NCBI GenBank assembly: GCA_045603505.1
Contig: JAZUMI010000006.1
Location: 1 to 61,925 of the forward strand
Source of the DNA: Acutalibacteraceae bacterium
GTDB lineage: Bacteria > Bacillota > Clostridia > Oscillospirales > Acutalibacteraceae
Direction: 5' to 3'
DNA length: 61,925 bases
The position numbers are program-made. Of the stretch, positions 3,001 through 6,000 are shown piece after piece (position 1 is the stretch's first letter; each line of letters opens with the position of its first letter).

Positions 3001-6000
3001 GTATTCTAATGCTTTTTCTTCGCCCCAAGCATTAACTAATGACTTATAGAACATATATCCTGTACCCGAAGATTTGGGGTTTGCCATAGAAATAAGTTCC
3101 TTATATTCGGGTTTGAGAAGGTCTTCATAACTTGTAGGTTCAGGAAGATTCTTTTCTTTCAAAACTTCGGTGTTAACTATAACCGCACCACCAACACGGC
3201 ACTGAATAAGATAGTTTTTACCTGCAACTGTATCTTCTGAGTAGATGCTTGTATCATATTCAGATAAATCTGCTAAAACACCTGCATCAGCTAACTGTGC
3301 CAAATAAGCATACTCAAGGTCATAACTGATATCACACTCAGTGTTTTTGCCCTCAGTTAATAACTTAGCAGCGTGATTACCTGTTGATACATATTCGACT
3401 GTGATATCGTAATCAGGGAATGTTTCGCTCAAACGAGCATTCATATCCTCGATAACATAGTCCTCAACACTGGTAAAGATTAAAATGCTTTCCTTGCCGG
3501 CAGTACAGCCTGTAAGCATAGTAGTAAGCACTACAACTAACATAAGCATAACTGCAACCATCGATTTAACTGTTTTTCTGTTCATTTAAATTACCTCCTG
3601 AGTAATTCATTTTTTGTTTTTTTATAGATAACTGGGGTCAAGTTTCTTTAAATCAGATATACTGTCAACTTCAACAATATCTTCAAAATTGCAATCACGC
3701 ACTTCCACACGATAGTTTTCTTGACAATATTCCAGAGCAACCTGGTCCCAGAATCTTTCTTTTCCACCCGGCATTTCATATACGCGCTTAATATCTTCGT
3801 ATAACTTAATGCCATCTTCTTCATTCCAATAAGAAATACCAAAAACGTGGTGGCAATTAGTACCGCCAACCTTCAATTTGGTAATAACATTATTTTTTGT
3901 TTCAAAGCACCAGTCATCCGTGCTCTTAACAGGCACACCTAAAAAATTAGAGGTGTACTGGTATTTTTGAATGAGATTTTTATCAAAAAGCACCAAATCT
4001 GCCTCTAATACATACGCCCCCTGGATAAGATGCCTTGCACACATGGCAGAAGAAATGTTATTAGATTCGTTATAAATAGGATTTTCAATAAAAGAAATAG
4101 TAGGATACTTATAAAGCAATTGGTCAAACTGTTCGCCTAAGTATCCACGCACGATATAGATTTCTTCAATTTCCGCACTAATTACAGCATCAAGAAGTGT
4201 ATCTATTATTCGTGTTCCCTTTACTCTAATGAGTGATTTTGGGGTATTGAGTGTTACAGGGACAAGGCGTGAACCAAACCCCGCAGCTAAAAATACTGCT
4301 CTTTTTACACGGTAGGGTTCAAGCGCAGTGTATCCCTTTCCTGTAAGTCCATTATCATCAATAAGGCCTTCCTCATGTAGTGATGCAACAGTACGATTAA
4401 CCGAACCGAGTGACATATGTGCCGCCGCTACCAGTTCACGTTGCGTAAGCGGTTTCTTGCTACGTTCCATACAAGTCAATATATCAAATTGTTTTCGCGT
4501 AAGCATTTTTTTAGACACACATTTCACCCCACTTCAACTGAATCCCAAACCTATTAAGTTCATATTTTAGATTTTACCACCAATTTTGGAACATGTCAAT
4601 GTTTTTATACAAACTTATATGTTTTAACTAATTTTTTTACATTTTTAAGCCTTTTCTTGTAAAAACTCCCTAATTTTACACCGCAAATTATAAAAAACAC
4701 CGCTAAATCTGTTTTTAGCGGTGTTTTAATATTAATTTTTGGGGATTTTAGGACCAAATTTAAAACATTAAGTGAAGTTACATGTGTTCCATTATTGTGC
4801 AATTTATGAAAATTTTAAAACGTTTTTATAAATTGTTATTCGTTAGCGATATGAATTATAAGATGGGTCAATCTCGCATAATTCATCAAAATGGTCTATT
4901 TCCCTGATATCCTCTTTTTCACACTCACGAACATGAACATGATAAATATCTTTATATTTCACCATTGGAACATAGCACCAGTCCTCATCTTTGTGAGCCG
5001 GGAAACTTTCTTCAAGATGCGCACGTAATGTTGCGCCATCCTCTTTACTCCAATATGAAATACCCAGCATTTGATAGCAATCGGTGTTTTCGATACCGAG
5101 TTCATATATAATGCCCTCTTCGTTGGTTTTAAAATACCAATCGTCTGTTTCTTTGGTAGGGATACCAAGATATACCGAATGATACAAATACTTATCAAAT
5201 ATTATAGGATTCTTAAGCAACAAATCTGCCTCAGAAACATAGGTGTTTTCGAGGCGGTCTCGCAATAAATATACTGAAGAAATATTATTTGCTTCGGTAT
5301 ACATAGTGTTTGTAACAAGATTAATGTTCGGATATTTTTCTTTTAGTTGTTCAAACTGTTCGCCCAAATATCCGCAAACAACATAAATCTCCTCAATTCC
5401 TGCCGCCATTACACCATCAATTAAGGTATCAATAATACGAGTACCGTTAACCTTAACCAAAGGTTTTGGAGTTTCAAGAGTTACAGGACGAAGACGTGAG
5501 CCAAAACCTGCTGCTATAAAGATTACTCGCTTAGTTTTATAAGGTTCAAGTGCTTCTACACCTGCATCTGTAATACCATCATTGCCGATTAAACCTTGCT
5601 CCTTAAGGTCTTCAACAATTTCCTTCACATACTCAATATCTAAGCCGCAGCATTTTGACAACTGTTCATATGAAAGCATTACTCGTTCTTTTTCTAATGC
5701 TACCAATACATCAAATTGTTTTTTTGTCATAATTACTCCTCCTAAACCACTTCAGGTTTTGTTTGTCAATTCCTGTATTTATTATTATATACAAAAGGCT
5801 CAAAAGTCAATGGTGAATCGTTTCTTAAATCATCACAATCAAATCCGCTTGAATAACTGCTATTGCCATATGGTAATTCTTGTAGTTCTTTTCCACCGAA
5901 TATAATGCCATAAGCTTTAACTATCATTTCATACGCATCAGACTTCGCCCTATCAAATAATTCGAAAAAATCCTCATTTGAGGCAATTTTAGAATCATTT

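Follow-up and report, generated by a model that had tools for sequence, protein, structure and literature searches.

A winged-helix–LicC fusion as proposed autorepressor of its own importer operon, and its diverged paralogue, in an Acutalibacteraceae bacterium

Two neighbouring genes in a 61,925-nt stretch of DNA from an Acutalibacteraceae bacterium (assembly GCA_045603505.1, contig JAZUMI010000006.1, positions 1 to 61,925; hereafter the window) raise the question of why an enzyme of the LicC type should carry a winged helix-turn-helix (wHTH) domain, and why the combination should occur twice. Both genes, here called T1 (3622..4527) and T2 (4843..5730, 295 aa), lie on the minus strand, and both open reading frames (ORFs) were confirmed, with the T1 coordinates giving the longest ORF. 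As the original prediction for this DNA had described, each encodes an N-terminal HTH domain (~66 aa; ~70 aa in that prediction), an ALEPY(R/K)xKR linker and a LicC-type cytidylyltransferase domain. The two proteins are 46% identical over 293 aa (BLASTP, E 2e-95), the identity being ~33% over the first 60 aligned positions and ~50% across the catalytic domain, which agrees with the earlier by-eye estimate of roughly 50% in the catalytic part and below 40% in the HTH. The same prediction took both proteins as candidate enzyme-repressors. Our analysis favours a narrower answer, which as a whole we regard as fairly probable: T1 would be a bifunctional protein, both enzyme and autorepressor of its own importer operon, whereas T2 would be a diverged duplicate that acts as an enzyme only.

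The winged-helix domain of T1 (4309..4518, minus strand) has the element order H-H-H-β-β-H, as indicated by Pfam matches, a structure model and conservation. A Pfam scan or a structure prediction had been suggested as a check of this domain; T1 scores above four Pfam gathering cut-offs, i.e. MarR_2 (33.6 bits; cut-off 27), HTH_IclR (26.5; 22), MarR (25.7; 24.6) and HTH_24 (24.3; 21.9), and both copies are modelled as winged helices. In the AlphaFold model of T1 (predicted local distance difference test, pLDDT, 95.6; predicted template-modelling score, pTM, 0.92) an H-H-H-hairpin-H unit is joined to a LicC fold. A Foldseek search with the full T1 model returned no solved structure that combines a wHTH with a LicC domain, all matches covering the enzyme domain only. 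MarR proteins possess N- and C-terminal dimerisation helices, whereas the fusions have a ~66-aa core with a minimal-hairpin wing, which in T1 runs directly into the enzyme domain; because these flanking, dimer-forming helices are absent, the N-terminal domain of T1 is a wHTH core and not a full MarR protein. A homodimer prediction with two copies of T1 gave a median score of 0.02 against a mark of 0.42, a result that counts neither for nor against dimerisation. Among the T1 proteins of 83 species, the start of helix 2 (T-Q-R-E) and the motif S-x-G-(S/T)-V-N-(K/R) in helix 3 are 80–90% conserved within an otherwise variable surface, the conserved positions being Q22, R23, S32, G34, N37 and K/R38. 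In the window, the recognition helix reads MSLGSVNRTVASLHE (~4372–4416, minus strand). The ALEPY..KR linker is conserved in at least 90%.

A conserved inverted repeat accompanies this conserved helix. For every T1 operon we collected the 300 nt that precede its first gene (80 regions), aligned them by eye and then counted motifs, with shuffled sequences as the null (dinucleotide shuffles for hexamers). The most enriched hexamer, TGAACA/TGTTCA, occurs in 67 of the 80 promoter regions compared with 16.9 in the shuffles (z 11.4), and the next three enriched hexamers overlap it. The start-to-start distance from GTTC to GAAC shows a sharp peak at 31 nt (44 cases; 59 at 30–32 nt), while other distances are seen once or twice; exact GTTC-N26-28-GAAC pairs are found in 49 of the 80 regions, but in only 0.6 of the shuffled ones. 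A scan of all 940 kb of the loci gave 59 sites with consensus flanks, of which 56 occupy the expected promoter position: before T1 in operons that begin with it, and before the gene for the solute-binding protein in those that end with it. Each half-site has the consensus YGTTCA followed by an A/T-rich stretch. The upstream half-site begins 1–3 nt past a TTGAC-type −35 box, the −10 box lies mid-way, and the downstream half-site follows the −10 box by ~7 nt, over the predicted transcription start. This overlap with the TTGAC-type −35 and the central −10 boxes is seen in Oscillospirales, Christensenellaceae, Lachnospiraceae and spirochaetes alike.

The 62 kb of the window contain a single match, the predicted operator GTTC-N27-GAAC at 4558..4592. 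Read on the minus strand, the sequence here is TTGACA-T-GTTCC-AAAATTGGTGG-TAAAAT-CTAAAATAT-GAAC, so that the site lies on the sigma-70-type promoter of the T1/importer operon (4571..4599, minus strand; TTGACA-17-TAAAAT, matching at 11 of 12 positions, with a TG upstream). The palindrome CCAAAATTGG in the promoter spacer (4580–4589) was considered as an operator and rejected because it is unconserved in orthologous promoters and merely overlaps the conserved GTTCC half-site. A scan of the bacterium's own genome, a metagenome-assembled genome (MAG) of 1.65 Mb and 86% completeness, gave no excess of GTTC-N27-GAAC over other spacings (20 versus ~22), and the two strict matches in it (contigs C35 and C71) look like chance occurrences. 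Without such an excess across the genome, the regulon of T1 looks local.

We propose that T1 would place its winged helix on both half-sites, whose centres are 31 bp apart, i.e. about three helical turns, so that they would present themselves on the same face of the DNA. With one half-site adjoining the −35 box and the second lying over the transcription start, T1 on the DNA would exclude RNA polymerase and so repress the operon for uptake and activation to which it belongs; it is from this position that we infer the sign of the regulation. Substrate or product in the enzyme pocket would then tune the DNA binding of T1, as in BirA, NadR and the PurR of Firmicutes.

T1 belongs to the only HTH-bearing gene family that is common to the loci, and by the usual pairing of comparative genomics, which is not proof, it is most likely the protein that reads GTTC-N27-GAAC. 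One could instead imagine that neither fusion binds DNA, that an unlinked regulator reads the site and that the wHTH serves the enzyme as a structural or protein-contact module. Some enzymes do use winged helices as dimerisation modules; the pTM of the T1 model suggests that the wHTH may sit at a fixed place against the catalytic domain, and T2 keeps the fold without the DNA-reading residues. An unlinked regulator would have to account for a site that stays with T1 in three different gene orders and also in spirochaetes, in loci that share no other regulator family; were it a global regulator, an excess of sites across the genome would be expected, which was not found. Moreover, the polar residues of helix 3 are conserved in T1 and not in T2, which packing alone hardly explains. 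We therefore consider this alternative unlikely.

Several points nevertheless weigh against T1 as a repressor at this site. The assignment of the operator to T1 is based on co-occurrence in cis. The flanks of the window site are weaker than the consensus (GTTCC and TGAACT instead of TGTTCA and TGAACA), and about one-third of the promoter regions have no exact pair, some regions having been mistakenly drawn from within the permease gene. The sampled species are related, so that the counts for operator and conservation are not fully independent. Finally, Streptococcus pneumoniae LicC is monomeric (PMC6697681), and two T1 molecules would have to cooperate across 31 bp.

The second copy differs from T1 in the part that would contact DNA. 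The winged helix of T2 (~5533–5730, minus strand) has kept its fold and lost its DNA-reading residues. The expectation that Pfam would recognise a wHTH in both copies is borne out for T1 and not for T2, where no Pfam wHTH family exceeds its cut-off (best PF24409, 25.1 bits versus 27); the model of the isolated T2 domain (pLDDT 86.7) is nonetheless of the MarR type, matching winged helices of this family with query TM-scores of 0.72–0.85. Among 39 T2-type N-terminal domains, the hydrophobic core, the hairpin and the ALEPYKTKR linker are retained, whereas helix 3 is the most variable segment, is acidic and carries deletions of 2–3 residues in four of them. The mean net charge of the T2 domain is −4.6, compared with ~0 for T1. 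Thus the recognition helix is conserved among orthologues for T1 and hypervariable for T2.

These differences bear on the idea that both fusions are enzyme-repressors with operator specificities of their own, T2 acting on the assembly operon that it ends and T1 on the importer operon. In its favour, the wHTH fold and the conserved linker are kept in both copies, and their recognition helices differ. As the T2 helix is acidic, hypervariable and indel-bearing among its own orthologues, we read the difference as decay rather than as a second specificity. No T2 operator candidate was found, the promoter region of the assembly operon (14063–14366) contains no GTTC-N27-GAAC site of the T1 type, and most species in which T1 and LicD genes occur together lack T2. 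Regulation by both copies is accordingly very improbable. The earlier proposal that the fusions couple substrate availability to the transcription of uptake and decoration genes is thereby reduced to its first half: the conserved helix of T1 and the conserved operator-like repeat on its own promoter speak for control of uptake, while control of the decoration genes is not indicated.

T2 is probably an enzyme only. It would be expressed with the polysaccharide-assembly operon and act as a cytidylyltransferase, its winged helix being a structural appendage that does not read specific DNA sequences. A further reading makes T2 an anti-repressor: with its DNA-blind helix and T1-like body, it might form pairs with T1 and so remove T1 from the operator. 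Since T2 is the last gene of the assembly operon, transcription of that operon would automatically relieve the repression of the head-group importer, coupling demand to uptake; we think this improbable. Two metagenomic relatives (P0015 and P0085) have T2-like catalytic domains (69% and 65% identical to T2) together with a T1-type helix, TQREIA...MSVGS(V/A)N(R/K)T, and look like intermediates between the DNA-reading and the decayed form. Because they pair a T2-like enzyme with a T1-like helix, they suggest that T2 descends from a DNA-binding ancestor.

The enzyme part is intact in both copies. The LicC/PntC signature GXG(T/S)RX4-8PK contains the catalytic Arg and Lys (PMC6697681), and it is present in T1 (AAGFGSRLVPVTLNTPK; domain at 3625..4299, minus strand) as well as in T2 (AAGFGSRLRPVTLETPK); the AAGFGSRL, TPK and EAD motifs reported earlier as intact were found in both. 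In an alignment of 95 sequences, G76, G78 and R80 never vary and at least 90% of the sequences have K90, and the columns of GxGSRx8PK and of EAD/DDW/SYW are invariant or nearly so among the 83 species. For both copies the best match among solved structures is S. pneumoniae LicC (E 2.3e-24 for T1 and 2.3e-30 for T2), followed by the PntC domain of Tde1415. The model of T1 matches 1jyk with E 2e-20 and a TM-score of 0.89 on the target over 232 aligned columns (Foldseek), while the LicC fold of T2 is supported by the sequence match.

T1 is thus probably still an enzyme. It might otherwise be a regulator only, its LicC domain a non-catalytic ligand sensor like the phosphoribosyltransferase (PRT)-like domain of PurR, for which PurR provides the precedent (PMC8789054). 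The near-invariance of the catalytic columns speaks against this, as does the finding that four of the five other genomes checked contain no LicC-like gene besides T1. Among these four, the two Firmicutes carry LicD, which needs a donor activated with cytidine di- or monophosphate (CDP/CMP), while none was seen in the two Treponema genomes. A purely regulatory T1 is scarcely probable.

Which head group is activated is less easily read, as the specificity residues are mixed and the substrate is not readable from the sequence. The position of LicC D105 is a Glu in both copies, as is E104 in Tde-PntC, and that of D192 is Asp in T1 and Cys in T2. The pockets of T2 and T1 differ consistently at several positions (WC versus WD, DDWYF versus DDWCF, SVYL versus SAMCA), for which reason the two enzymes may prefer different head groups, or head groups from different sources. 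The adjacent importer has PhnS2, PhnT2 and PhnU2 as its best NCBIfam matches, all below their cut-offs, the PhnS2-like solute-binding protein far below (198 bits versus 392.75). The nearest solved relatives of this protein (2590–3585) are, as deposited, Fe3+-type binders (4r72, 8x1a) and a binder of pyridoxal-5'-phosphate (6wce), which by homology would fit an organophosphate ligand better than choline. No phosphoenolpyruvate mutase above cut-off was found in the 86%-complete genome. These data fit the import of a ready-made phospho- or phosphono-head group, for which no kinase would be needed; phosphocholine, aminoethylphosphonate (AEP) and phosphoethanolamine are candidate substrates that the sequence data do not separate. 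The LicC-type domain of T1 would accordingly activate a phosphorylated or phosphonylated amino head group, delivered by the adjacent ABC importer, with cytidine triphosphate (CTP).

The layout of the window is consistent with the placement described in the original prediction, in which one copy ends the assembly operon and the other heads the importer operon behind a strong promoter of its own. An intrinsic terminator (4694..4727, minus strand; a 14-bp stem followed by a T run) ends the assembly operon after T2, and together with the promoter at 4571–4599 it shows that T2 closes this operon and T1 opens the next. The importer is co-transcribed with T1 (167..3585, minus strand) and consists of the solute-binding protein (2590–3585), an ATPase (1783–2562) and a fused permease (167–1804). 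T1 has three in-frame starts within 4506–4527 (GTG 4527, GTG 4518, ATG 4506). GTG 4518 lies 9 nt downstream of GAAGTGGGG and yields a protein of 298 aa with a 4-residue N-terminal lead, in keeping with most orthologues, which have this length and 4–5 residues before LTRKQFD; the gene caller's choice was ATG 4506 (P0122, 294 aa). Either GTG 4518 or ATG 4506 is probably the true start, the ORF from GTG 4527 probably being too long. A riboswitch or leader RNA was also considered for the leader region (4400–4900) and discarded, as no Rfam family exceeded its threshold there and the sub-threshold matches all fell on the terminator hairpin.

T2 is the last gene of a polysaccharide operon with LicD, Wzy, Wzx, Stealth and PLC-like genes. 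This operon contains two LicD paralogues (6750–7712 and 12013–12891), which are only ~28–31% identical to each other, and with two cytidylyltransferase paralogues (the only two wHTH-LicC copies in the genome) there may be two head groups or two attachment sites. Two LicD genes also occur in a species with a single T1 (L003).

How widespread such fusions are was among the questions raised by the original prediction, and they turn out to be very common. Word-index searches matched at least 6,260 and at least 8,000 clusters, and an exhaustive search of a library at 50% identity gave 203 clusters at E ≤ 1e-30, many of ~300 aa covering the whole query and others of 590–890 aa. Relatives are encoded in at least 516 reference species (one genome per species), and their public names are generic, e.g. 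'NTP transferase domain-containing protein'. The 80 loci that we kept all match over nearly the whole length, winged helix included. The hosts comprise Oscillospirales (Vescimonas, Faecousia, Acutalibacteraceae, Ruminococcus), Christensenellaceae, Lachnospiraceae, Clostridium methylpentosum, and Treponema and other spirochaetes. A T1-type gene is present in 83 of 83 loci, whereas a T2-type gene is found in only 8–9, in every case as the gene just upstream of T1 and in a single T1 subclade; a PLC-like gene accompanies T2 in five of nine such loci. In a quick tree, calculated without an outgroup and so leaving the direction of the T1/T2 split unrooted, T2 forms a monophyletic group on a long branch.

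At least 56 of the 83 loci retain the linkage of T1 to the importer, with the order T1–solute-binding protein–ATPase–permease in 26 and solute-binding protein–ATPase–permease–T1 in at least 30. Where the ABC importer is absent, the gene after T1 encodes an MFS transporter (9 loci; e.g. L031:6893-8188) or an LtaS-like protein of the sulfatase family (8 loci; e.g. L024:6776-8596), and in 23 loci a YidC-TagF fusion (60KD_IMP + Glyphos_transf; e.g. L082:81-2165) is encoded near the operon. Given these neighbours, the T1 module pairs with several transporters and transferases. In the longer architectures, the wHTH-LicC unit is N-terminal in proteins of ~595 aa (P0333, P0371, P0375) and C-terminal in those of 850–890 aa (P0249, 858 aa; P0242, 889 aa). 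The T1 genes of Treponema, Brevinematales and other spirochaetes (L043, L046, L048, L052, L057, L058, L065, L073, L076) form one clade nested among Firmicute sequences (SH-aLRT 97), and most of these loci keep the same operator. This nesting and the retained operator suggest that the whole self-regulated module was horizontally transferred to spirochaetes.

Among known systems, BirA and NadR show how one polypeptide can carry out nucleotidyl transfer and repress the genes of substrate supply, NadR governing uptake as well. The analogy to them, drawn by the original prediction for both copies, remains apt for how T1 would work; for T2, with its decayed helix, it is not supported. Even T1 shares neither HTH class nor enzyme fold, pathway or operator with them, and ligand control is a proposal. 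A closer operator geometry is offered by the PurR of Firmicutes, in which a wHTH is fused to a PRT-like effector domain, and which recognises two inverted boxes with CGAA/TTCG cores in AT-rich DNA, 16–17 bp apart (PMC8789054). As in T1, a winged helix is joined to a domain of enzyme fold, which in PurR binds a pathway metabolite, and the boxes are spaced ~30–31 bp from centre to centre, as in the T1 operator, making PurR the closest in operator geometry among the systems compared here. Unlike in T1, however, the effector domain of PurR is non-catalytic, the −35 is preceded by the boxes rather than overlapped, and their core orientation (GAAC...GTTC) is opposite to that in the T1 operator. The Pfam family PuR_N has no match in the window fusions, and the likeness of T1 to PurR, an analogy, is one of mechanism and not of family membership.

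LicC of S. pneumoniae (CTP:phosphocholine cytidylyltransferase; 1JYK/1JYL) and PntC (Tde1415, 6PD1/6PD2; Ari1348) share the catalytic fold and signature with T1 and T2. Their pathway logic, CTP activation followed by LicD transfer (PMC6697681), is the same as that proposed here for the window copies. LicC and Ari-PntC each consist of a single domain, and in Tde1415 the fusion partner is an aminotransferase; in contrast to T1 and T2, none of them has a DNA-binding domain. Our literature searches on wHTH-LicC fusions, or on fusions of phosphonate cytidylyltransferases with regulators, found no paper.

If T1 binds the predicted operator, it would represent a widespread and so far undescribed class of enzyme-repressors in Clostridia of gut and rumen and in spirochaetes, in which the uptake of a phosphocholine- or AEP-type surface head group would be tied to the activation of that group by CTP. 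As the operator has a defined sequence and spacing, the idea is directly testable. The contribution of the window is a tandem pair in which one winged helix has decayed, and this pair provides a natural comparison, since T1 keeps the DNA-reading residues and T2 has lost them while retaining fold and enzyme; the pair would show how the functions of a bifunctional protein are split after duplication. The decoration of bacterial surfaces with phosphocholine or phosphonates affects how the host recognises bacteria, and its regulation in gut commensals would therefore be of practical interest.

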